NCBI GenBank assembly: GCA_050012255.1
Contig: JBEKHN010000002.1
Location: forward strand, 1 to 64,000
DNA from: Candidatus Bathyarchaeia archaeon
GTDB lineage: Archaea; Thermoproteota; Bathyarchaeia; Bathyarchaeales; Bathycorpusculaceae
Length of the DNA: 64,000 nucleotides
Direction of reading: 5' to 3'
The notes under the pieces were generated by a model. That model worked only from the letters and a program-made list of their open reading frames with translations, was not told the DNA's origin and did no database searches. Positions 1 through 63,705 of the stretch are shown in pieces. The translations under genes and the position numbers were made by a program. How positions within the stretch are numbered: the first letter of the stretch is position 1; each line of letters begins with the position of its first letter.

Positions 1-135
1 AACCTTCTTTCCATATTCACGGAACTTTTTCCCGCAACACTCGTACTGCTTAACATGTATCTTTTTGTTCCTGCCCATATCCCACTCCTTTATCGGCGAT
101 TCAACTTCTTTTCCACAGGTCGGACACTTAGCCAT
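1..135 (-). CDS. Cren7-like small zinc-binding chromatin protein (3' end runs off the window)
   Basis: Not in the ORF track. Reads MAKCPTCGKEVESPIKEWDMGRNKKIHVKQYECCGKKFREYGKKV, with GGAGGTGA SD at 143-150. The P-x-K-x-W ... Y-E-C-C-G-K-x-F-R pattern resembles Cren7-family proteins. Confidence 0.65.
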   Translation of the reverse strand, partial: MAKCPTCGKEVESPIKEWDMGRNKKIHVKQYECCGKKFREYGKKV

Positions 136-716
136 TTGTCTGTCACCTCCTTCAAAGGTTTTAAGATTAAAAAACAGGGTATTAAAAACAAGGCGTTGTT
201 TCCGCGTCTATAGGGCTCCGTAGAGCTTGGTTCCACACCTAATGCCCTACCAATCTTCTTCCTCTATTTCCTCTCCCTCTTCTTCTTCCTCTTCGCTCAT
301 AGCGTTGTGCTCCAAAATTAGCGCCCTTGGGTCAAGTCTATAGCGCTATTAATAAGCGTGTGGATAGTCAAGCATGCTCCTTAAAGCGCGCGCTAACACT
401 TTTATTCAGGCACCCTTCAGTCTTGGATGGGTTTTCAGGTTCAATCCAACAAATGCAACTGGTGCCTGTCAGTTTGCTACAGGGTTGGATCATTGGAAAC
501 CCCTCGCGCGCGCTATGCCTTGTTTTCTGATTACAAGATAGCTGCATGAACTTCCACGCTTATGATAACTCAAACAGGGTCACACTAGAAAAAGCCTACG
601 TGAGTTCGTTTCATTATCACCCAACTTGTAGCAAGAAAACTAATCACCGCTGATGAGCCAGAACCTGACCCATCAGAAGGTTTATCAAGTTTACAATGTA
701 ACTACCAGAGATCTTA

Positions 717-1463
717 ATGCAGATACAAGAAATGCAAATTGAAGTCAATCAGTTTTTAGAGTCTTTGAATGTTGACATGCGAGTTATCATTGTTACCAAT
801 TGTCGGGACGACATAGCAAAGGCTATCGGACTACATATTAACGGCACGATTCCTGTCGTGAATCTGAAAGTCAATGTAGCTTTCGGAAACGTGTCCGTAA
901 ACAAGGATTATTTGAACAGAACTCTAACCTACGATGAACAAAGGTTCATGTTGGCACATGAAACTTCCCACATCTATCTTAATCATGTTGTACCTCGTGC
1001 CATTGATGGATTCATAGATGAACTCATGAGAAACTGCAAAAGCGATGTTCACGCCTTCCTAAAGGGGGTACAAGTGTTTTTGTATCTACTCAATATCCCT
1101 CCCCCTTTGTCTGTCATCGCTAAAGAGCAAGAAATAGCTGCCGATGTCAGAGCGATATCTCTAACAGGAAATGAGAATGCTGCTATCAGTTGTTTAACCA
1201 AACTTGTTAATGGAAATCTAGATGACACCTCCCATACTTGGGAAGCACTCGGTGTCAAAATGCCTGTTATGACTATGAAAGGACGTATCCAAGAGATACA
1301 GCGAAGATTATCCAGTCTATATCAATATGTCTCCAAACCATCTTCATGTCTGAAATCATCCGAAATTTCACAGGGAAAACCATTCGACGCAGACTTCACA
1401 GAACCTCAAAAAGCAATACCGCAAAAAATCAAATCATCACCCGACTTGCACCACGAAGACTAA
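717..1463 (+). CDS. M48/HtpX-like zinc metallopeptidase
   Basis: HETSH (HExxH), downstream EQEIAAD third-ligand motif, late SH...RI motif. Confidence 0.75.
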   Translation: MQIQEMQIEVNQFLESLNVDMRVIIVTNCRDDIAKAIGLHINGTIPVVNLKVNVAFGNVSVNKDYLNRTLTYDEQRFMLAHETSHIYLNHVVPRAIDGFIDELMRNCKSDVHAFLKGVQVFLYLLNIPPPLSVIAKEQEIAADVRAISLTGNENAAISCLTKLVNGNLDDTSHTWEALGVKMPVMTMKGRIQEIQRRLSSLYQYVSKPSSCLKSSEISQGKPFDADFTEPQKAIPQKIKSSPDLHHED

Positions 1464-1705
1464 TCACCCGACGATAGACCAGAACCCAGAGCGCGCGCGC
1501 TAACTTCGCTCAGTCTTCAACGCTCCACTAAATATATTTCTGATAGAAGGACTAATCCCTTCTCCCAATATAAGTAGAGGACCATTAAAGTGACCGTGAA
1601 ACTTAGCGCACGCTATCATTTGTAACAACTACCCGCGCTTTTGGAATGACCAGTGATGAGAGTTGAGTGTGCGAGGTGTGAAATTGGTCGAGCTGAAAAG
1701 AGCGT

Positions 1706-1963
1706 TTAAGTGCTAGTGACTATTTCTGCTCCTGCGGCTACAGGTCCTGGTGTCGTGATTTTGATTCTTAAATGGTCTCCGGGCTTTGCGTTACCAATGA
1801 AAACTGGGAAGCCCTTGATTCTGGCTATGCCTTCCCCTTGAGGGCTTGTTTCGGTTATATCCACTTCGTATTCTTTTCCAGTCTCAACTGGGCAGTTTTC
1901 AATGCCTCTGCCACGTTTGCTCTTGGCATTTCTCGGGCTTCTTTTTCGCGGACTCATTGGCAT
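1706..1963 (-). CDS. TRAM-domain RNA-binding protein
   Basis: PVETGKEYEVDI...GEGIARIKGFPVFI..AKPGD, typical of archaeal single-TRAM proteins. Confidence 0.85.
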   Translation of the reverse strand: MPMSPRKRSPRNAKSKRGRGIENCPVETGKEYEVDITETSPQGEGIARIKGFPVFIGNAKPGDHLRIKITTPGPVAAGAEIVTST

Positions 1964-2219
1964 CTTCCTTTTTCTGCTTTTTTGATGATATGATTATCGT
2001 CCCTCAGTGGCTTAAGTGTTCCGCATTTTACTGCTCGCGCTAACCCAATTGAAAGTGCGATAATCTATAGCCGCGCGCCTTACCTCTTTGTTGTCTCAAA
2101 ACCCGAAACAAGCGAAGCCTGCCTATTTCTAACCTCTTAGTTCTCTCAAGACTCTTTGCTATGGCAGTCTGAGCCCCATGGGTTTCATATAATAGGAATG
2201 GAAGAACAATAGTCGGAGT

Positions 2220-2807
2220 GTGGTTGCCGTGTCAGATGATGATTGGTCTGTAGCAGTTTTCAAATGTGCACCAGAGAATGTCAGAAGTGTTCTTCTTGAA
2301 TTCTACGGTTTTGTGGTAGACCTTGTAGGGGTTAAGAATCTTCACTTTTTGATCAGAGATCGCGTTGAAGGCGAGGTTGTTGTCAGCTTTCGCGTGTTGA
2401 CAGAAAAGAAGTACCACGAAGTTGTTCAGAGCAAGATGAACTACAAACTCGGAATTCTTGTTCCCGACAAGTTCGCAGTCAATCCTGACTCACAGAACCC
2501 GTTGAACAAATATGTTGCTTGGGGCACCGAAAAAAGAATATCCAAATCGGGTCTTGACAAGTTTCCAGAATTCTGTAGTCTTCTCAGCAAGATGAGTGGT
2601 TTGGTCATAGAGATGCTGAAGGACGACTATTTTGGTTCCAATGAGAGAGTTGAAATTGCCCATGTGATGTCATGGATGCTTGGCTGTACTGAGTACGGGA
2701 AGATGAGCCCAACACACTGGGAACTTGGGTATTATGACCGCATAGAAGACAAGTGTCGTCCATACCTGAGACAAAACTTTCCACAGACCCAGAAATCTGA
2801 AACATAG
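2220..2807 (+). CDS. Hypothetical protein
   Basis: 195 aa ORF filling one (GC)n-bounded segment, with an upstream TATA-like sequence. Confidence 0.7.
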   Translation: MVAVSDDDWSVAVFKCAPENVRSVLLEFYGFVVDLVGVKNLHFLIRDRVEGEVVVSFRVLTEKKYHEVVQSKMNYKLGILVPDKFAVNPDSQNPLNKYVAWGTEKRISKSGLDKFPEFCSLLSKMSGLVIEMLKDDYFGSNERVEIAHVMSWMLGCTEYGKMSPTHWELGYYDRIEDKCRPYLRQNFPQTQKSET

Positions 2808-2920
2808 CTTCTTGGACAATTGTGTGACGGCTCAACGAGCGCGCGCGTTGTAAAAAAAGTCAAATATATCACGTTATGGTATTCTAAAAAATACTGATAA
2901 AGAAAGGATGAGAATTTAAA

Positions 2921-3482
2921 ATGAATGAGACTTTAAAATTAATAAAAAGCCGGAGGAGCAATCCACCAATTCAAAACGACACAGATCAGTGACGACGAAT
3001 TACGGACAATAATGGAGGCGGCTATATGTGCACCTAATGCGATGAACCAGCAAAAATGGCATTTCGCTGTAATCCAGAATAAAAGTATCCGCGATAGGAT
3101 GGTAGGAATCATCATTGAAAACATGAGAAATTCCGGTGTCGAGTTTTTGGCGGCAAGAGCCAGAACACCTGAGTATAACCCATTTTATGGAGCACCCACT
3201 GTTGTCTTCATTAGTGCTGATGAAAAGACTAAATTCTCTCAAATAGATTGTTCGTTAGCTGCTCAGAATATCGTCCTGGCCGCTGCCTCTTTAAATATTG
3301 GCTCCAATATCCAGACATCACCAGGTTTTCTTTTTGCCTCTGAAAAAGGGAACGAGTTAGGAAAAGAGCTGGGAATTCCGGATGGATACAGCTATGTCTG
3401 CAATATAACGCTTGGTTACCCAGATGGCCCCAATCCCGACGCCAAACCCAGAAGGCAAGAGGTTATTACTTATATCAAATAG
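2921..3482 (+). pseudogene. Nitroreductase family protein with a +1 frameshift near 2960
   Basis: ATG 2921 gives MNETLKLIKSRRS. Removing one A at about 2960 continues IHQFKTTQISDDELRTIMEAAICAPNAMNQQKWHF. RRS and APxxxNxQxW are nitroreductase motifs. Confidence 0.8.
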
Positions 3483-3537
3483 AAACTGCGTCTGGTAATC
3501 GCGCGCGCGGCCCGATTTGATTGAGAGAGAGAAAAAG

Positions 3538-3563
3538 ATAAAACTTTACCCCCCAAACCCAAA
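3538..3563 (+). repeat. 26-bp element, inverted copy at 8817-8842
   Basis: ATAAAACTTTACCCCCCAAACCCAAA versus the reverse complement of 8817-8842, ATAAAACTTTACTCCCCAAACCCAAA (25/26 identical). Confidence 0.85.
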
Positions 3564-3758
3564 CCCAAAGCAGTCCCGTCCTTGGGTAGCGAGCTTTAAC
3601 TCAACGGTTTCTCATAAGACTTAGCTGGTGAAAGTCGAAATAATCACGGCGCCTATGATGACATCACGTCAGCATGAAGGGATTTAAGTTCGGTTCTTTT
3701 TTCCCAAGATGATCTGACATTAAATTGATTCTGAGGCGCCACAACACCATGCGCGCGC

Positions 3759-3867
3759 TACTGTTCCACACTTCTTTAGGCATTAATCTGTAAAGAGAAG
3801 ATTCCCACACTGTCGAAGGAGCAAGCTCAATTGTCAGCTTCAAAATCTCTCGCTTCCTAGACTTCAA
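3759..3867 (-). pseudogene. N-terminal fragment of an HNH-type endonuclease-like protein, cut at the (GC)n run 3751-3758
   Basis: LKLTIELAPSTVWESSLYRLMPKEVWNS resembles the LTIELVPxxxW...W N-terminus of a small HNH nuclease family. The resemblance ends at the GC run. Confidence 0.55.
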
Positions 3868-4043
3868 TAAGAATAAATGCGACTTTTCACAAAAAGGTTT
3901 CTGGGTATTCAGTTGGTTGAACATTATTTTGATATTGAAACTACTGGCTATTGGCTAGCTGTCTTCCCATGATGTCCTAGCATATTTACAGCAGGTTTAT
4001 CTTGAAAAAGGCGATAGACAATTGAAAGTTGAGGTGATAGAAC

Positions 4044-4202
4044 ATGAGTAGAGAACAGAATCCCCGCAGAAAACCTATCAATAGCGCTCGACGTGATAGA
4101 GCTAAGGCCATCAAACGAGAAGAGCTCGTGGTGGAAAGAAGCAGAAGAGAAGATGATAGCCCAATTTTGTCTTTTCACCTCCAAAACATGACTGGCAGAT
4201 GA
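4044..4202 (+). CDS. Small basic protein, 52 aa
   Basis: GAGGTGA SD; MSREQNPRRKPINSARRDRAKAIKRRELVVERSRREDDSPILSFHLQNMTGR. Below the ORF-track cutoff. Confidence 0.55.
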   Translation: MSREQNPRRKPINSARRDRAKAIKREELVVERSRREDDSPILSFHLQNMTGR

Positions 4203-4207
4203 AATAG

Positions 4208-4351
4208 ATGGCTCGAAAAGAACGATGTTCCCAATGTGGAAGTAAGAAAATAACAGTCCAAGCCAGTTCTAAGAAGTGTGAAGTCTGTGGATTTCAGTGG
4301 AGTGGAAAAATGGGAAGGAAGACTTCAAGAAAAGAAAGAACAAGATACTGA
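4208..4351 (+). CDS. Small zinc-ribbon protein, 47 aa
   Basis: MARKERCSQCGSKKITVQASSKKCEVCGFQW..., two CxxC motifs, 5 bp after the preceding ORF. Confidence 0.7.
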   Translation: MARKERCSQCGSKKITVQASSKKCEVCGFQWSGKMGRKTSRKERTRY

Positions 4352-4628
4352 GAGAAGATTAGATGAGCCTCTGTATCCTTTGACTTCCTTCTCCTTGTTC
4401 TTTGGCGCGCGCGAAGTTTTCGCGGGAATAGAGCATCGCTTTTGGCATTTTGGCATTATTCGCAAGAGCCCTTGACCATCGAGCAGTCCTATGGAGAATT
4501 GAGAAAACCAAGTATATAATATAGAATCGGTTTGCCCTGTTTTCCATAGGACAATCTAAGCAGGCTAAGACGTTGGTGCAAGCGCATGTACAAGATGGCA
4601 AAATCGTTGCGTTCGCTCAGCGAGCGAT

Positions 4629-4742
4629 TTAGTATTCTTCCTTCTTCCAGATGTTGTAGGGACATTGTCTCCAGCAGTACGTGCTGCTCTTGTAAATGCA
4701 ACCCTGACATTCAAGTCTGTCAAACCGTCTACGCCTGCTCAT
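4629..4742 (-). CDS. Small Cys-rich protein, 37 aa
   Basis: MSRRRRFDRLECQGCIYKSSTYCWRQCPYNIWKKEEY, CxxC...CxxxC. Confidence 0.45.
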   Translation of the reverse strand: MSRRRRFDRLECQGCIYKSSTYCWRQCPYNIWKKEEY

Positions 4743-4860
4743 AAACAGACTCTCTCAATATTCTTATGACACTTCCTTCTCATTAAGTCTGGCCTCACTC
4801 TGCAGCGCGCGCGATAAACGTAAATATGCAGGACTTCTGATATGTTGTGAGGAGTTTATT

Positions 4861-4965
4861 ATGGTCAAGTGCGCGAAATGTGGTAAAGATATTCCTGCAG
4901 GACAAGAAGTGAAGAAAGGCATCTTAACAAAAAAAAGCTATCATAAGGAATGTGCACCCAAGTAG
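4861..4965 (+). CDS. Micro zinc-finger protein, 34 aa
   Basis: MVKCAKCGKDIPAGQEVKKGILTKKSYHKECAPK (CxxC...HxxC), GAGGAG SD, upstream TATA-like sequence, downstream T-rich tract. Confidence 0.7.
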   Translation: MVKCAKCGKDIPAGQEVKKGILTKKSYHKECAPK

Positions 4966-5185
4966 AGTCAATACTCATCAGTATTGCACAGGCACTTCCC
5001 TAACCTTTATCCTCTGAAGACAATTATTTTCTTTTATCTTTTTTTCTTTAGTGTCTCGACTAATCCGTATGGGTCCAAGCGCGCGCACCAGAAACGTCGT
5101 AAGTGCACGTCAAGACTGTTGTAGTTAAGATTTAAGACAGCCTTAAATATCAGAATGGCGAGCATCCTGAGAAATAGGGATTTGC

Positions 5186-5818
5186 ATGAGTAAGGAATCG
5201 GCAGTCTGTAACCCTGAAGATGTACGGTTTAGGAACATAATTGGAATGGGATTGGACTTTTCTTCTATGATAAGACTCTTCAAAAAAGACTCAGAGACCA
5301 CGTTGTGGGAGAAGATAGTTGAAGATCATGGACCAAGAATCTTCAAAGCCCAATCTAAAGAGGAATTCGACGAAATTCACAAGGAATTTTGTAAATGGGG
5401 ATCGAGAAATATAGTACTGGCTCAAAAAAGAACAAGGAACGGGCGCATCATAAAGGAAGGGCCAGCAACTTACGGCCAGATTGCAAAAACCTTCAACGTT
5501 GCTTTGAAAGTGGCTGTATATTACTGTCATCTGCCTGACTATCAAAGAAGTGCTAAGATTGTGGAGTGGCTGCATGCAGGTGTCGATACCCGTATGATGG
5601 CAATGCTCAAGAAAAGGCTGAAGGGAAAACACCCAGAGTACTTCGAGGGTTGGCCAGAGGCGGTGAAGGATGTGGACAGCGAAAAGAAATACTCGGAGCT
5701 TCAAGAAGTTGTTCGTATATTCATCAGGGAGAAACACGACGAAAAGCTTCGGTTGCCAGTGCAATTTGATGACGTCTATTGGTATAGAATAACACAAGGA
5801 CTCGAAAAGGATTGCTGA
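5186..5818 (+). CDS. Hypothetical protein, possibly HhH/Ogg-like alpha-helical fold
   Basis: 210 aa with a TTAAATA promoter. Motifs GQIAK, HAGVD and C-terminal FDDVYW. Confidence 0.7.
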   Translation: MSKESAVCNPEDVRFRNIIGMGLDFSSMIRLFKKDSETTLWEKIVEDHGPRIFKAQSKEEFDEIHKEFCKWGSRNIVLAQKRTRNGRIIKEGPATYGQIAKTFNVALKVAVYYCHLPDYQRSAKIVEWLHAGVDTRMMAMLKKRLKGKHPEYFEGWPEAVKDVDSEKKYSELQEVVRIFIREKHDEKLRLPVQFDDVYWYRITQGLEKDC

Positions 5819-5831
5819 ACTAGCATGCGCG

Positions 5832-6200
5832 AAATATCACATTGAGGTCAGAGTGACCATCGAGAAAGCCTTCCGGTTGAGGCTTATTGACACTCAGACA
5901 AAGAACGGCCGCAAACACCGCAGGGGTATGGACACGCTGAATGCGATCAAGTTCGCCCCTCAAACTGTGACCAAAGCTGCAGAGGAAATGTTTGGCACTA
6001 GCGAATACAGGAAAGTGCTGGTCGTCTGGGATGTTGAAGACGAGAGCGTGATTGAAAAAGGGAAAAGTCTCTATAGGATTGAAATTTGGAAAATGTCAGA
6101 CCTCATAAACCAGCTAACGCAACGAGTGAACACGAAATCATACCGAGATGATGTTTTGAGGACGATTCAGCTTATTTCAGCAAGAGTCAGAAATTCCTAG
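5832..6200 (+). pseudogene. C-terminal fragment of a PD-(D/E)XK-like nuclease
   Basis: Frame is open from the GCATGCGCG junction as KYHIEVRVT.... It contains an (E)x(K/R)-like motif and a YRKVLVVWD strand. No convincing start or N-terminal half. Confidence 0.45.
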
Positions 6201-6332
6201 CCTTGTTTTGGTTCAAGGTGTTCTCCGACCCCCTCCCCCTAGTCTTTGCTGCCTTTCGCCACCTCTACAAGAAAAACTTTGCGGGTCTGTCACAGTTCTG
6301 GGAGGATAGAGAGGGCAGAAAAAGTCAAAGAG

Positions 6333-7933
6333 CTATTCGTCCATGTGCCCCTCTTTCATGAGCGTTGCCAAAATCTCTATCGTGTTCGAGATGGATGAAT
6401 AGGCAGAGTCGAGCAATTCTTCGTGATTTCCCTTGATCTCAAGAGCCTGTAAGACAGCAAGATCTATGGCACGCCTGACCTGATTTTTAGTTCTCAGTTG
6501 CTCAAGGATAGACGGAAGCTTTACCTTCGCATGTCGCTGGAAGACTTTGATGAGTTGCTCTCTCTGCTCCGGCTTTAGTTTGGTTGAGTCAAGAACGAGA
6601 AACCTCTGAAGTATGTATTGGTCAAGTCCCATAAAGGCCCCTTCTGTTTCTGCTCGTCTCGAAAGGATCTGAGCAATGTTAACTGTGGAATTGAACCATA
6701 ATGCCAGTATTTTGGCATCTTCATCACTCAATCCTCGAATGGCCCAGAACATTTTGCACGGGGCTATTGCTGATTTGCTATAGAAAGCCATGGCAGACGT
6801 ATTTTGTGCCGAGAGATTGAAGCGTCTTGAAACTGTCAGTTTAGTCCTTCTGTTTTCAAGGTATTCTCGCCACTTCTTGACATAATTCGATAGATTCTTT
6901 CCTTTCTCGACTAGTTCTTTTATGAAAAAATATTGGTCGCCTGTGAAGCGAGAAACTATGGCGTAATCCAAGTCGTCTGAAACGTCTATAGACTGGAGGC
7001 CAGCGGGTCTCCTTAATGCAGGGATTAACGCTTTCTTAGGAACGCTTGCCTCCACATCTACAAGTCTGTCTTTAACCAGAATAGAGTCCGTCCCTGCCTC
7101 TTTCAGAATCCACCTGTCATCTTTCTTCATGGCATGCCGTTCTGAGGACAAAATGAACGCAGAAGAGACTGACACTGGCTTCCCTGTCCAATGCTCTATT
7201 CCTCTGACTATCTTTCCCTTCCTAGAATCTAGGAGTGTCTGCAGAGTCTGAAGTTTGTCTCCCGCCTGCTGTGAACAAACGTCTAGCAGAGACTCGGCAG
7301 CTTGCGTTGATATCTTGCCAAACCAGTTCTCAGTCGAAATCTTAAGTTGACTCTGTTCCACAAGCCTTGTCGATAAATCTGCGTCATCTAGTTCCTGAGA
7401 CGTGCTTTTTGATGAAATTATCTCATCTGCTAGAAAATCCGAGTCTGCTGCATCAACAGGGATACGTTTCAAATTGACGAAGAGACATTTGGAGACGTTC
7501 AATCCTTTTTTGGTCTTGGTTGCGATTAGCAGCATCTCTCTAAATCTTGCAGCTTCTGAGAAAGCAGATCTCTGCTCGGTTGTGATAATGTAGTCTAATC
7601 GATAATTCTCAACGAGGAATTTCCGGATTCCTTCCAGGCTCTGGAGTCTAAGGACTGTGGCTGGGAGGACAAAGGCCATTCTTCCATCATCTTTGAGAAA
7701 CGTGTCAGCTAAAAGAATGAAGTAACCATGAAGTCCAACTTGTCCAGTTAGAACATCAGAATACTGTTTGAACCGATCTGCCAACTTGCTCTTGTACTCA
7801 TCAGGAAGACGTTCTTGACGCGTGAAAGGAGGGTTCATTATAACAACATCAACTCGTTCAAGAGGAATAGAGTCCCCACCTACTCCTTCAGAAGTCACAG
7901 AGCCTTTCTTAACGTACGCTTCATCAGAGAACT
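6333..7933 (-). pseudogene. 5'-truncated amino-methyltransferase/specificity part of a type IIG (Eco57I-like) restriction-modification protein
   Basis: VDVVIMNPPF motif IV, LKDDGRMAFVLP and a TRD region with ILALWFNS. Motif I (SAM-binding) and the N-terminus are missing. The ORF begins at the GC run 7934-7943. Confidence 0.8.
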
Positions 7934-8034
7934 GCGCGCGCGCTGGCATTTTATCAAGCTCCCTTAATGTCTTATTTTCTTTTTATCAGCTTTCTTTTTT
8001 ATGTGTTTTTTCTTTCCCATTTTTATCACCTCCA

Positions 8035-8242
8035 TCAATTTTGTTTGGGTGGCTTTTTGTAATGTTTGATGAGTTTGTATGTGCCAATGAATAGTAGTGA
8101 TAATGCTGATACTATGGCTATGAGGTAGACTATTGGAGAAGACGATTGTGTCAGAAGCACATTTGACTCGTGCGAGAGTTGGACAAAAATGAAAAATGGT
8201 TCCTGTAATTGTATGAAGGACTCTTTGAATAAAAGAAGGTAG
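8035..8242 (-). pseudogene. C-terminal fragment of a membrane-anchored protein
   Basis: Open frame without a start from the GC junction at 8243: ...SSPIVYLIAIVSALSLLFIGTYKLIKHYKKPPKQN* (TM helix plus basic tail). Confidence 0.45.
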
Positions 8243-8338
8243 GCGCGGGCGCGAGAGAAAAGAAAAAACTCATCGGCGGGCTATAAACAAAAAAAGAAGA
8301 AGAGTACCTTCTGAAAAGTATCAAATTGTCTTAATGTT

Positions 8339-8662
8339 CTATAGAGTTTCGATCGTTACGCCTAGCTTGTCACTCTTTTTTATGTCTTCAGATGCTTTGA
8401 GATTCTTTGAAAGATCGGCGTATTTTAGAAGATTATAGCAGCTTGTCTTTTCTCCCTTCTTTTTAGAGATGTCGGCTTTAGTTTCAAATGATTCAACTTT
8501 AGCTATGGTGACCTTAATCCCTGTTTTATTGCTTGTAACATCCTCTAATAACTCGAACTGTTTCCTATGCTCATCAGATGTAAAGAGATTGTTGATTTTT
8601 GTTTCCTCTCCCTTCTTGACGTCTGAATCGGCTACTAACTCGATGCTACCCAATTTAACCAT
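8339..8662 (-). CDS. Hypothetical protein
   Basis: 107 aa, AGGTGA SD, AT-rich, fills one segment. Confidence 0.65.
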   Translation of the reverse strand: MVKLGSIELVADSDVKKGEETKINNLFTSDEHRKQFELLEDVTSNKTGIKVTIAKVESFETKADISKKKGEKTSCYNLLKYADLSKNLKASEDIKKSDKLGVTIETL

Positions 8663-8992
8663 AATATCACCTTTCTATTTCGACTTTGTTGAATACGCGC
8701 GCGCTGCTTATAAACAGCACGTCCAAAATCATGAAGCCCAGGCTTCTAAGAATCCAATTCGAGGTCAATAGGAACATTCAACAAGTTGTTTTTTGTGACC
8801 CATGATTCGCGCGCGTTTTGGGTTTGGGGAGTAAAGTTTTATGCAACCAACGCGCGCTAAGAACAGCGACGGCAGCATAACGGTGCGGAAGGCTTAAACT
8901 CCTCTCTTTTTTCGCGCTAAAAGTCTTAAAGTATTGCCTTCTGACCCGTTAGGTATATAAAACCGTGCTTTCTAATCGTCTAGCTCCAATCG

Positions 8993-10339
8993 GTGATGGA
9001 AATGGCCAGTTATCCGAAGATTATTGTTACTCCACCGGGCCCTAAAGCAAGGGAACTGGTTAGAAAAGACGAAGCACTCATTTCGCCTTCCTACGGTCGA
9101 TTCTATCCTCTTGTCGTCGAGTCAGGCAGAGGCTGTATAGTGAAGGATGTCGACGGAAACGAGTACATCGATTTCAACTCTGGCTTGGTGTGCATGAACG
9201 TCGGCCACAACCATCCCAAAGTGGTTGCAGCCATAAAGAATCAGTGCGACCGCTTCCTGCACTACTCAAACACGGATTTCTTCTACAGGGAGGTCGTTGA
9301 GCTCGCCGACAAACTAGCACATGTTACACCTGGAAGCCCCGAGAAGAAGGTCTATTTTGGTAACAGTGGAGCCGAAGCTATAGAAGCTGCTGTCAAGCTT
9401 GCAAAGTGGCATAGCCGCAAACAGCTGTTCATAGCGTTCACCGGCTCCTTCCATGGTCGTACAGTAGGAGCACTGTCCTTCACAGCCAGCAAGCCGACTC
9501 AGAAACGCTATTTCTTCCCGTTGATGCCTGGGGTAACTCATGTTCCTTACGGGTACTGCTACAGATGCCCGTTCAAGCTGGCACTTCCTGAGTGCCACTA
9601 CTGGTGCGTAGACTTTATTGATGAGCAAGTTCTGCAGAAGTACGTTCCCCCCGAGGACACTGCTGGAATCGTGGTTGAACCCATACAGGGTGAAGGCGGG
9701 TACGTTGTGCCACCGCCAGAATACTTCCAGCGACTGAAGAAGCTTGCCGACAAATATGGATTGCTGCTAATAGACGACGAAGTACAATCAGGAATGGGCA
9801 GAACTGGAAAATGGTTTGCAATCGAACACTGGGGCGTTGAGCCAGACATCCTTTGCACCTCAAAGGCACTGGCTTCGGGACTACCTTTGGGAGCAACTGT
9901 AGCCAAAGCCAAAGTCATGGATTGGGTTCCAGGCTCTCACGCAAGCACGTTTGGCGGCAACCCACTGTCATGCGTCGCGGCAAGCGCAGTGATAGATGTC
10001 ATAAAGGAAGAAAAGCTTCTTGAGAACGCGACGAAGGAAGGTGCTTACATCATGAAGCGGCTCACAGAACTGAAAGAGAAGAGTGAAATCGTGGGAGATG
10101 TCAGGGGCAAGGGTTTGATGATAGGCATGGAAATCGTTGAAGACAAGGAAAGCAAGAAGCCCGCACCTCAAAAAGCGAGCGAGATAATGACCCGCTCATG
10201 GAAACGAGGGATCAACGTCATTACCTGTGGGGCTTCAACCATTAGAGTTGCCCCGCCTCTGATCATAACCAGAGAGCTTGTGGATACGGCACTGGACATA
10301 ATTGAAGACGTCACAAAAGAAGTTGAAAAGGAAAGCTAG
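8993..10339 (+). CDS. Class III PLP aminotransferase (acetylornithine/4-aminobutyrate type)
   Basis: EPIQGEGG, DDEVQSGMGRTGK, SKALASG, STFGGNP. Confidence 0.92.
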   Translation: MMEMASYPKIIVTPPGPKARELVRKDEALISPSYGRFYPLVVESGRGCIVKDVDGNEYIDFNSGLVCMNVGHNHPKVVAAIKNQCDRFLHYSNTDFFYREVVELADKLAHVTPGSPEKKVYFGNSGAEAIEAAVKLAKWHSRKQLFIAFTGSFHGRTVGALSFTASKPTQKRYFFPLMPGVTHVPYGYCYRCPFKLALPECHYWCVDFIDEQVLQKYVPPEDTAGIVVEPIQGEGGYVVPPPEYFQRLKKLADKYGLLLIDDEVQSGMGRTGKWFAIEHWGVEPDILCTSKALASGLPLGATVAKAKVMDWVPGSHASTFGGNPLSCVAASAVIDVIKEEKLLENATKEGAYIMKRLTELKEKSEIVGDVRGKGLMIGMEIVEDKESKKPAPQKASEIMTRSWKRGINVITCGASTIRVAPPLIITRELVDTALDIIEDVTKEVEKES

Positions 10340-63696: not shown

Positions 63697-63705
63697 GCGC
63701 GCGCG
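63697..63705 (-). repeat. Isolated (GC)n junction motif 70 bp 3' of tRNA-Leu
   Basis: Minus strand reads CGCGCGCGCTAAG, the same form as the 1-8.9 kb junctions. Confidence 0.7.

Follow-up and report, generated by a model that had tools for sequence, protein, structure and literature searches.

Perfectly alternating G/C runs are a genus-wide class of dispersed palindromes, not a feature particular to the island in which they were first noticed, and our comparisons support the conclusion that they mark junctions where DNA has been gained or lost. The best explanation we can offer, which we hold tentatively, is that the runs may be joints which remain at insertion sites of IS5-family elements and then serve again as such sites.

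Abundance, phase and natural origin of the GC runs

The window is the whole 64,000-nucleotide stretch analysed. G000 denotes its genome, that of a peat Bathyarchaeia archaeon (2,351,129 bases), contig numbers without a prefix are those of G000, and the genus comparison comprised G000 and 10 sister genomes (11 in all). Positions 1-8917 contain 12 perfectly alternating G/C runs of 8-10 nt each, starting at 386, 505, 1491, 2839, 3500, 3751, 4405, 4805, 5079, 7934, 8696 and 8808, which confirms the count made in the sequence-only reading; two more runs, of 7 nt, start at 2072 and 8851. The remaining ~55 kb of the window holds five runs of 7 nt and one of at least 8 nt (63697-63705), which lies beyond the 9.0-63.6 kb said earlier to be free of such runs. 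G+C is 0.40-0.45 in 1-9000 versus 0.45-0.55 in the rest of the window. Genome-wide, G000 has 393 runs of at least 8 nt, or 0.167 per kb; at this rate ~1.5 would be expected in 8.9 kb, against 12 observed (Poisson P ~6e-8, calculated by hand).

The length histogram in G000 is not a simple decay, with 517 runs of 6 nt, 171 of 7, 201 of 8, 123 of 9, 63 of 10, and two each of 11 and 12. The phase is fixed, both for 8-nt runs (GCGCGCGC 176 vs CGCGCGCG 25) and for 10-nt runs (GCGCGCGCGC 55 vs CGCGCGCGCG 8), and the runs are mostly G-first, C-last and flanked by A on the left and T on the right. GCGCGCGC is the commonest 8-nt palindrome in G000 (434 copies; CGCGCGCG has 236), and the next commonest outside alternating G/C words has 129 copies. 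It occurs 29-464 times in each of the 10 sister genomes, 0-14 times in eight other genera of the same family, and 53 times in one other family of the order.

By crude ORF-based gene calls, which assign 83% of G000 to coding sequence, 292 of the 393 runs fall outside genes or at contig edges, and of the 101 "genic" ones 62 lie no more than 60 nt from an ORF end. The claim that runs fall between genes thus broadly holds, the runs at 3751 and 7934 being exceptions in the window. Runs concentrate in accessory islands, but single runs are also present in core regions, and the idea that they are a property of a local array has to be given up.

Orthologous sites in three species at ~8% divergence (G000, G001 and G007) keep individual runs. 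Moreover, those at 2072, 2839, 4805, 5079 and 7934 are bridged by contigs from sequencing runs X2, X3 or X4, which come from two studies other than that of X1. We conclude that the runs are real, natural sequence found throughout the genus. An artefact of assembly or library preparation, in which filled-in BssHII ends or a chimeric contig made the runs, had been raised as a danger, and re-joined G^CGCGC ends would indeed give 6, 8 or 10 nt in the G-first phase. We consider this reading refuted and its probability negligible, given the enrichment in all 10 sisters (the records that were named represent several differently labelled isolate series), the identical runs at orthologous sites and the independent bridging contigs; runs also avoid genes, which random ligation would not do.

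GCGCGCGC resembles HIP1, which two papers describe as a lineage-specific, hyper-abundant octameric palindrome in cyanobacteria (PMC5861425, PMC4390886). By this likeness, the runs could be a selected functional site, either bound by a dimeric protein or related to methylation or repair, whose link to breakpoints is secondary to an intergenic position; the strong intergenic bias and the persistence of some runs at orthologous sites agree with it. We regard such a site as unlikely. Promoter-side or terminator-side spacers are not preferred in G000 (70 runs in 5'/5' spacers, 66 in 3'/3', 77 and 62 in tandem ones), runs are concentrated in accessory islands, they come and go with indels instead of substitutions, and C5-cytosine methyltransferases, the only methylase class searched, occur in just 2 of the 11 genus genomes.

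The mosaic island and its integrase

Positions 1..8953 of the window are the right-hand 8.9 kb of a ~10.4-kb strain-specific island. As had been suspected, the island continues off the left edge: its left 1.5 kb is the reverse complement of C3:1-1500 and overlaps window 1-90. The aminotransferase flank (window 8954 onward) is joined without a gap, in G001 and G007, to sequence corresponding to C3:1501 onward. To the left of the window-1 homologue, G001 and G008 have the sequence of C3:91 onward. The island is inserted at TATATAA upstream of the aminotransferase gene, which is syntenic in 9 of the 10 sister genomes; this motif is likely the TATA box of that gene. The features are as follows (strand given for genes and the boundary motif).

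1..135, minus strand: small zinc-ribbon ORF continuing into C3, no Pfam match; part of a ~500-nt module whose limits are GCGCGC at C3:116-121 and run 386
386..393: GC run GCGCGCGC; alignments end at 385 and start at 384-388, loose read ends at 385/386
505..513: GC run CGCGCGCGC; copies of a 120-nt module end at 502-505, other copies continue without a run
717..1463, plus strand: M48-like peptidase gene, 248 aa (Pfam PF01435, E 4.5e-7)
1491..1500: (GC)5 run that is conserved in G001 as part of the common 2.2-kb block; an X1 contig spans it
1706..1963, minus strand: TRAM-domain gene, 85 aa (Pfam PF01938, E 1.9e-12)
2072..2078: 7-nt GC run, also conserved in that G001 block; an X2 contig spans it
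2220..2807, plus strand: 195-aa gene, no assigned family; paralogue at C5:58859-59522, 94% identical
2839..2847: GC run, right break of the 195-aa gene module; alignments end at 2834-2840; bridged in X1, X2 and X4
3012..3482, plus strand: nitroreductase ORF without the ~23 N-terminal positions of the family model (PF00881, E 2.9e-21, match from position 24)
3500..3509: GC run 18 nt past the nitroreductase stop codon; bridged in X1
3751..3758: GC run within a doubtful 86-aa ORF, right break of a widely repeated module (~3534-3750); at least 10 alignments end at 3748-3750, and copies in C12 and C9 continue past or break 6 nt further
4405..4413: GC run; loose end at 4405 in X1
4805..4813: GC run separating the repeated modules 4468-4804 and 4804-5050; spanned by X1 and X2 contigs
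5079..5086: GC run; bridged in X1 and X2
6333..7949, minus strand: 5'-truncated Eco57I/N6-adenine methylase-like ORF, C-terminal part only (PF07669 from position 76, PF02384 from 123); also matched by PHROG methyltransferase families
7934..7943: GC run where the methylase gene is cut off, within codons 2-5 of the truncated ORF; bridged in X1, X3 and X4
8696..8704: GC run; an alignment starts at 8702, loose end at 8702
8808..8857: pair of GC runs (8808-8815, 8851-8857) enclosing a 35-nt dispersed motif copy beginning TTTTGGGTTTGGGG
8954..8960, plus strand: TATATAA, right island boundary from the junction sequences, repeated at the left boundary (C3 ~1501-1507)
8993..10339, plus strand: class-III aminotransferase gene, conserved flank outside the island (PF00202, E 3.8e-128)

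The peptidase, TRAM, incomplete nitroreductase and partial methylase matches bear out the unrelated cargo seen earlier. The modules and gene fragments of the island turn up again, differently ordered, in further islands and in other species; the island is a real mosaic, a patchwork of both.

A look left of position 1 for an integrase, ligase or nuclease had been proposed, and a tyrosine integrase gene does lie at the left end of the island, on C3. Together with cassette-like modules that occur in either orientation with one run per junction, this could suggest an integron-like array in which a site-specific tyrosine recombinase uses the GC run as its crossover core; a symmetric core would permit both orientations. 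We find this very improbable. The boundary beside the integrase is TATATAA and not a run, and the gene was found with this query in only 3 of the 11 genus genomes (G001 having fragments only), while runs are present in all 11; a gene of such patchy occurrence cannot account for the runs. No attC-like long imperfect palindromes were seen at the junctions. The view that the system is neither integron nor CRISPR is upheld. Finally, the breakpoints of one module vary by a few nt between copies, as those of conservative site-specific recombination would not.

Runs as breakpoints and indel marks

Self-BLAST alignments in G000 end at 64 of the 393 runs and pass through 8, versus 77 and 166 of 1572 control positions, obtained by shifting the runs by 120 or 200 nt. 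Alignments to sister genomes end in clusters at 385/386, 502-505, 1486/1487, 1502, 2834-2840, 3748-3750, 4804-4813 and 8702, and pieces of the mosaic recur elsewhere, starting and ending at runs, as had been predicted. Segments between runs are nevertheless not always the units: homology with G001 across the 2.2-kb block 626-2834 crosses two runs unbroken, so some mobile units span more than one inter-run segment. The peptidase module has three different left ends in three genomes, with a run at each. Some short gene fragments have a run at each end: 103 nt at window 1502-1604, a 152-nt methylase piece at C1:108705-108856 and an integrase fragment in G001.

Between species, runs stand at insertion/deletion differences and are gained or lost with them. 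At C2:65893, a run replaces ~300 nt that both G001 and G007 keep. A footprint-like event is seen at C3:19943, where A(GC)5T and a 3-nt duplication occur only in G000; G001 and G007 are uninterrupted there. At C3:27536, cargo without inverted ends is inserted at runs in G001, giving n cassettes and n+1 runs. Changes between run and segment in the G000 lineage go in both directions, so recombination between lineages may have obscured their polarity.

Arbitrary breakpoints like those of the peptidase module, the doubly bounded fragments and the cargo at C3:27536 would also suit a separate process of break joining or recombination in which a self-complementary (GC)n linker is written wherever DNA ends are joined, possibly by adding short GC tails to 3' ends that then pair, with IS5-like elements only targeting the resulting palindromes. 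This is essentially the idea of the sequence-only reading. It gains from 8 of 18 simple indels with a run in the short allele, whose long allele has no run-like edge word or element; C2:65893 is one of these. However, the short allele of 23 of 46 simple indels lacks any run-like word, which means that this would not be a general repair route. No candidate enzyme was found, the sole nearby recombinase being the sporadic integrase; G000 has no resolvase, Y1 transposase or TnpB, and no polymerase or ligase activity is known to write alternating GC. We judge this process somewhat improbable, though it is the strongest competitor.

IS5-family elements with GCGCGC ends

Element ends follow the pattern GCGCGC-(A/T)(T/A)GC-N-TGT(T/C)CC-N-AAAT, with 133 termini and 44 complete pairs, and GCGCGC brackets both sides of every copy found. 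The superfamily includes putatively autonomous IS of ~1.1 kb, MITEs of 160-310 nt and transposase-less cargo carriers. One decayed copy has DUF772 and DDE_Tnp_1 domains, the IS5-family architecture, and ~330-aa open frames matching DUF772 adjoin such ends in G003 (an 1123-bp element with both ends) and G009 (one end in the sequence examined). In G001, one copy of 1765 nt has two passenger ORFs but lacks a transposase, and no intact transposase of the superfamily was found in G000. The terminal pattern is present in G000 and 7 of the 10 sisters; outside the genus it has only three matches, all in G026, and a control pattern has none anywhere. The superfamily is genus-restricted.

Runs and elements share their surroundings and their sites. 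Immediately outside the hexamer or run lies an A (a T at the opposite end) at 74% of element ends and ~60% of solo runs, and TA stands there at 47% and ~22%, respectively, versus 4% in the background. TA flanks both sides in 10 of the 44 pairs, with 10 expected under independence, and the pairs showed no direct repeats of 3 or 4 nt in their flanks; simple target duplication is therefore not supported. At four allelic sites, a sister without the element has a solo run or run-like word instead. At C2:86879, an 8-nt run in G000 and G007 corresponds to the TIR-bounded 1765-nt element between GCGCGCGC and GCGCGC in G001; the outgroup has the solo run, which favours insertion into an existing run. 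At C2:185364, G000 and G001 have a run and G007 a 186-nt TIR element; at C3:43050, a MITE in G000 faces TA-TCGCGAGC-TA in G007; and at C7:91888, a run in G000 faces a partial TIR plus run in G007. The few resolvable cases included no clean empty MITE site.

Several results weigh against the element-joint reading: the missing clean empty sites, the solo run shared by the outgroup, the lack of an intact transposase in G000, the uncorrelated TA flanks, the long alleles free of run-like edges and the changes in both directions described above. Solo runs (385) are also far more numerous than element ends (133). G008, G009 and G004 have 254, 359 and 128 copies of GCGCGCGC but 0, 2 and 0 terminal-pattern matches, and the words after TAGCGCGC in these genomes show almost no conserved end. 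Runs so abundant where element ends are rare fit the linker process, as does the arithmetic 8 + 4 = 6 + 6 expected if elements insert at the centre of an octamer with a 4-bp duplication. IS5-family elements typically make a 4-bp duplication, and some bacterial IS target REP sequences, which elements aiming at abundant palindromes would resemble.

The preferred reading is that the runs are insertion joints of IS5-family elements. The lengths of 6, 8 and 10 nt, with almost none longer, and the G...C phase would follow if two GCGCGC ends pair over 2 nt or more and are joined. The ~400 palindromic joints in G000, with consensus A-GCGCGCGC(GC)-T, would be boundary sites of the superfamily. On loss of a copy, its two self-complementary hexamers would merge in 2-nt steps to leave a joint of 6, 8 or 10 nt, always G-first and C-last, which new insertions could strike again. 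A precedent comes from ISApl1/Tn6330 and IEE, for which one preprint describes IS loss via microhomology at the IS ends that leaves passenger genes with small scars (bioRxiv 10.1101/2023.06.07.543989). The direction (scar, target or both), the mechanism of merging and the transposon origin of most solo runs are the parts of this account that we infer.

Taken together, the earlier interpretation is partly supported. Comparison of the locus across relatives showed a strain-specific island whose flanks are directly joined in G001 and G007, and the runs behave as marks of gain and loss of DNA; the link to IS5-family IS and MITEs had been missed. A dedicated DNA-capture system is possible. If the runs are element joints, cargo insertion, recombination between copies, adjacent deletion and copy collapse would together produce islands of unrelated pieces lying between joints.

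Alternating G/C runs in the window and across the genus

Window 1-8917 contains 12 perfectly alternating G/C runs of 8-10 nt, together with two of 7 nt; a direct count agreed with the 12 given by the sequence-only reading. The other 55 kb of the window hold one run of at least 8 nt, at 63697. G+C content is 0.40-0.45 in the run-rich region, below that of the rest of the window. The window runs are spaced about 35 nt to 2.8 kb apart and their conserved word has 8-10 nt, compared with 24-48 nt for CRISPR repeats, whose spacers are uniform in length, so the earlier statement that the array is not a CRISPR holds.

The source genome (2.35 Mb, 38 contigs), in which the window makes up the first 64 kb of contig C2, carries 393 GC runs of at least 8 nt. 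Runs of 6, 7, 8, 9, 10, 11 and 12 nt number 517, 171, 201, 123, 63, 2 and 2, respectively, a histogram with a bump at 8-10 nt followed by a hard stop. The phase is fixed G-first: GCGCGCGC, the most frequent 8-nt palindrome of the genome, occurs 176 times versus 25 for CGCGCGCG, and the next form behaves likewise (GCGCGCGCGC 55 versus CGCGCGCGCG 8). Microsatellite slippage as the sole cause was rejected on account of the bump, the stop at 10 nt and the fixed phase. The base immediately outside the run is T (A on the opposite side) in 59% of cases, and the flank logo shows no conservation past 2 nt. With 83% of the genome called coding by our own crude ORF and codon-bias caller, which is not a curated annotation, 292 of the 393 runs are intergenic or lie at contig edges. 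No spacer type is preferred, the runs being spread evenly over divergent, convergent and tandem spacers; this evenness, together with the conservation of only 2 flanking nt, led us to reject a promoter or terminator element. The runs are clustered at many places in the genome, often at contig ends. All 10 sister genomes of the genus contain GCGCGCGC in 29-464 copies, whereas eight other genera of the family have 0-14 copies and G024, from another family, has 53.

The word recalls cyanobacterial HIP1 (GCGATCGC), which is likewise an octameric GC-rich palindrome that is many-fold over-represented and lineage-specific and whose function has long been debated. However, HIP1 lies within genes, with about one copy in each, and is associated with orphan methyltransferases that are conserved, whereas the present word is intergenic, island-rich and changes together with indels, and a PF00145 search of 11 genus genomes, confined to the C5 class, found methyltransferases only in the source genome and the sister genome G007. 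A HIP1-like selected site is therefore improbable, and a link to C5 methylases is unsupported by this distribution. The two C5-cytosine DNA methyltransferase genes of the source genome, absent from most sister genomes, lie at C7:4931-5887 and C6:37304-38281. HIP1 itself has reportedly been seen at the borders of a deletion in Synechococcus. A review of HIP (PMC4390886) mentions neither GCGCGC nor archaea.

The worry that the junctions are ligation or assembly artefacts, raised in the sequence-only reading, was not borne out. Runs occur at orthologous sites of the source genome, the closed sister genome G001 and G007 (for example C2:186782 and C2:86879). In addition, the runs at 2072, 2839, 4805, 5079 and 7934 are bridged by contigs of the metagenome sequencing runs X2, X3 and X4, which come from studies other than that of X1, and most remaining window runs are bridged by X1 contigs; window parts without contig cover in X2-X4 were excluded from this evidence. 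The probability that the runs are artefacts is thus negligible. Contigs of X1-X4 also have loose ends at 385/386, 502/505, 1502, 3750, 4405, 5075 and 8702, which shows that in the community these places are also joined to other neighbours. X1-X4, all containing the stretch, are peat and freshwater-sediment metagenomes; the habitat rests on these four, the small-share metagenomes X6-X20 being left out.

Architecture of the mosaic island

In G001 and G007, the aminotransferase flank (window 8954 onward) is directly joined to the counterpart of C3:1501 onward in the source genome. The first 90 bases of the window recur at the end of C10 (86489-86578) and, as the reverse complement, at C3:1-90; three contig ends thus carry the same 90 bases, a repeat that broke the assembly. 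These bases lie in a small zinc-ribbon gene, and a further copy of its module probably adjoins the end of C10. Copies of the first module in G001 and the sister genome G008 continue into the sequence of C3:91 onward, and the island therefore consists of the reverse complement of C3:1-1500 followed by window 91-8953, about 10.4 kb, with TATATAA at both borders. The sequence-only reading had the island running off the left edge and proposed looking there for an integrase. It does continue, on C3, which carries the following gene:

C3:193-1455, tyrosine integrase (PF00589, 27.3 bits, cut-off 27.1; PHROG_1, E 2e-11)

Used as a query, this integrase was present in only 3 of 11 genus genomes, in G001 as fragments only, and this sporadic occurrence rules it out as the agent of the runs. 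Integron gene-cassette arrays, which have also been reported in Archaea, resemble the island in that unrelated, often single-gene modules are lined up, separated by recombination sites, and shared among arrays. Unlike integrons, the island has imprecise breakpoints, sites dispersed genome-wide and no IntI-type integrase beside attI, as judged on the C3 gene, which borders a TATATAA junction, and its occurrence in the genus. An inverted-repeat scan of window 1-9000 revealed no imperfect palindromes of 60-140 nt with R/L boxes at the junctions, only GC words and chance pairs, in agreement with the earlier view that these are not attC sites. We consider an integron-like system very unlikely.

Homology ends at the runs. 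When the source genome was compared with itself, an alignment ended at 64 of the 393 runs and passed through at only 8, versus 77 and 166, respectively, of 1572 control positions offset by 120 or 200 nt. Eight of 10 sister genomes contain pieces of the island, with alignment ends accumulating at GC runs, and its modules recur, differently ordered, in islands of G001 (27 kb with 21 runs) and G008. The breakpoints of copies of one module lie a few nt apart, each with a run; on its left side, the peptidase module ends at a different point in each of three genomes, with a run in every case. Short gene fragments with GC runs on both sides also occur. The proposal of a mosaic joined at the runs was thus sustained, but not that of strict one-segment cassettes, since window 626-2834, common to G001 at 97% identity, crosses the runs at 1491 and 2072, both also found in G001.

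Several further observations concern the contents of the island. Window ORFs 2220-2807, 5186-5818, 5853-6200 and 8339-8662 had no Pfam or PHROGs match, and no Rfam family was found in window 1-9000 at E up to 0.1. A module of about 120 nt (window 386-505), likewise without an Rfam match, has copies at C20:32056-32175 and C2:205036-205143 of the source genome and in G001, G003, G004, G007, G008 and G009 (88-96% identity), often beside a GC run; an additional small mobile element and a gene for a non-coding RNA are both possible. A motif of 30-45 nt, rich in CCCAAACCC (TTTGGGTTTGGGG on the opposite strand), is dispersed near GC runs, at window 3523-3569 and 8816-8850 and at about 10 more places in the source genome (C8, C9, C10, C16, C21, C28, C34). 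In the peat metagenomes X3 and X4, a contig links window 3569 to 4812 via 40 other letters and is an island variant without 3570-4811. Beside the island, the aminotransferase orthologue contains one in-frame TGA in three sister genomes (G005:C1:12423-13757, G006:C61:905-2239, G008:C18:6420-7463); possible explanations are an assembly error, a pseudogene and recoding. Elsewhere, at C3:27400-27543, a GC run lies about 50 nt 3' of what by eye appears to be a tRNA gene 3' end; the G001 counterpart has two inserted cargo genes (by eye, acetyltransferase-like and hydrolase-like ORFs) and an internal run.

IS5-family elements and indels at the runs

Many of the GCGCGC words form the outer edge of a conserved end of about 22 nt. 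The source genome has 133 such ends and 44 complete pairs, with inverted terminal repeats common to autonomous and short non-autonomous copies, and most copies are 160-310-nt MITEs. Such ends also flank the sole DUF772 match in this genome, which has the IS5-family transposase architecture of DDE_Tnp_1 with an N-terminal DUF772:

C24:15248-16332, decayed transposase copy, 1085 nt (DUF772, E 1.1e-9; DDE_Tnp_1, E 1.3e-4 for the ORF and 4.5e-12 for the genome)

Open frames of about 330 aa in G003, G009, G006 and G011 match DUF772, the one domain compared. The G003 frame (locus L066) lies between both ends of a 1123-bp element, and in the part of G009 examined (locus L067) one such end stands beside the frame. 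G001 has a 1765-nt copy with two passenger ORFs and no transposase, whose interior gave no BLAST match in the source genome. Of the 10 sister genomes, 7 share the end pattern with the source genome; beyond the genus there were only three matches, in genome G026. In one MITE subfamily, a (GC)4 run lies inside the element at a distance of 31 nt from the end (…AATTCGCTGATA-GCGCGCGCG-TRAGAGCATATA…; source-genome copies at C2:95436, C3:116594, C12:11219, C34:2791 and C1:159576). Paralogous G001 copies read GCGTGCGTG at this position, and runs thus seem to decay via C-to-T changes.

These elements resemble IS5-family IS, MITEs and mobile insertion cassettes (MICs) in their decayed two-domain transposase, their inverted ends, their short non-autonomous copies and the passenger-bearing copy. 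Unlike IS5-family IS, their outermost 6 nt form the perfect palindrome GCGCGC, they show no clear target duplication, and unoccupied alleles have a GC run instead of a clean site. No 3- or 4-nt direct repeats flank the 44 pairs, and if GCGC or GCGCGC were the target duplication, sequence alone could not separate it from the inverted repeat.

The GC runs could well be joints of this GCGCGC-bracketed superfamily, although we hold this reading tentatively. Element ends and solo runs, which carry no element, have an A/TA flank in common. At four sites (C2:86879, C2:185364, C3:43050 and C7:91888), one genome has an element where another has a solo run or run-like word, a small sample compatible with either direction of change. 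At C3:19943, otherwise continuous sequence contains A(GC)5T plus a 3-nt duplication in the source genome only, which looks like a footprint. A joint would be left on loss of a copy, its two self-complementary hexamers pairing in registers of 2 nt, and joints would be used again as insertion sites; cargo insertion, recombination between copies and adjacent deletion would then produce the mosaic. Loss of an IS through microhomology, with passenger genes and scars left behind, has been described (bioRxiv 10.1101/2023.06.07.543989).

Several data do not fit a simple scar model. The sister genomes G008, G009 and G004 are run-rich with 0-2 matches to the end pattern. TA adjoins 47% of element ends but is found on both sides of 10 of the 44 pairs, with 10 expected if the sides are independent. 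Among the few cases that could be resolved, no MITE had a clean empty site; the MITE pairs of the part of G001 compared with the source genome had only two two-sided orthologues, both occupied, and the complete-looking G003 IS has a left flank without counterpart in the other 10 genomes. Moreover, among 46 simple indels between the source genome and about 0.85 Mb of G001 and G007, the short allele matched GCGCGCGC in at least 7 of 8 positions in 18, and for 8 of these 18 the long allele consists of unique DNA that lacks an element and has no run-like word at either edge. Cutting at existing GCGCGC with re-joining is ruled out for these 8, whose long-allele edges have no such site.

Direction was judged on three genomes with the tree ((G000,G001),G007), G000 being the source genome, from mean identities of 93.5, 92.0 and 92.0%. 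At C2:65893 the source genome has a run in place of about 300 nt kept by G001 and G007, and at C2:161961 a short run common to G001 and G007 is replaced by 1402 nt in the source genome. Change thus goes both ways, and lineage recombination may blur or upset the polarity. At C2:86879 the outgroup has the same solo run, which makes insertion into an existing run the simpler reading there.

Alternatively, a separate process may write the GC word at junctions, with the IS as its exploiter. We rate this as somewhat unlikely; a search of the source genome found no resolvase, Y1 transposase or TnpB. A more specific proposal, that dedicated end-joining or cassette exchange in the genus writes a self-complementary (GC)4-5 linker at junctions and that the IS5-like elements are passengers or exploiters and not the cause, is unlikely. 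If it were true, any run could pair with any other in either orientation, and accessory islands would be freely re-sortable archives of genes and gene fragments.

Relation to known repeats and implications

REP/BIME and the neisserial dRS3/NIME are short intergenic repeats that bound variable segments, build mosaics and are IS targets. They have 20-40 nt, are conserved beyond the core, and REPs are linked to RAYT (Y1) transposases. In contrast, only 8-10 nt are conserved here, and PF01797, the Y1 transposase family, had 0 matches in the source genome, which is 98.5% complete.

The joints of the tentative transposon reading also resemble IS-loss scars. Nearly precise excision, as in ISApl1 loss from Tn6330 or with IEE, leaves short remnants at former IS sites, and passenger genes occur without flanking IS, with deletions between microhomologies at or near IS ends (bioRxiv 10.1101/2023.06.07.543989). 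Unlike such scars, a constant self-complementary (GC)3-5 word occurs here hundreds of times per genome across a whole archaeal genus, often at sites without an element in any compared genome. Open-access papers and bioRxiv yielded no description of the GCGCGCGC word or such elements for Bathyarchaeia. As palindromes at transposon boundaries, or as one highly iterated palindrome located at indel junctions, the runs would be of an already known kind, and there is a real chance of something more unusual.

Bathyarchaeia are abundant uncultured archaea of peat and sediments, whose gene gain and loss are hardly known. In this genus, one palindrome of 8-10 nt marks a large share of between-species structural differences as well as the seams of accessory islands. 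If the runs are transposon joints, they would document with unusual clarity how transposons build islands in archaea and would provide a ready marker of accessory DNA in metagenome bins. They would represent a new kind of DNA joining if a separate process writes them.
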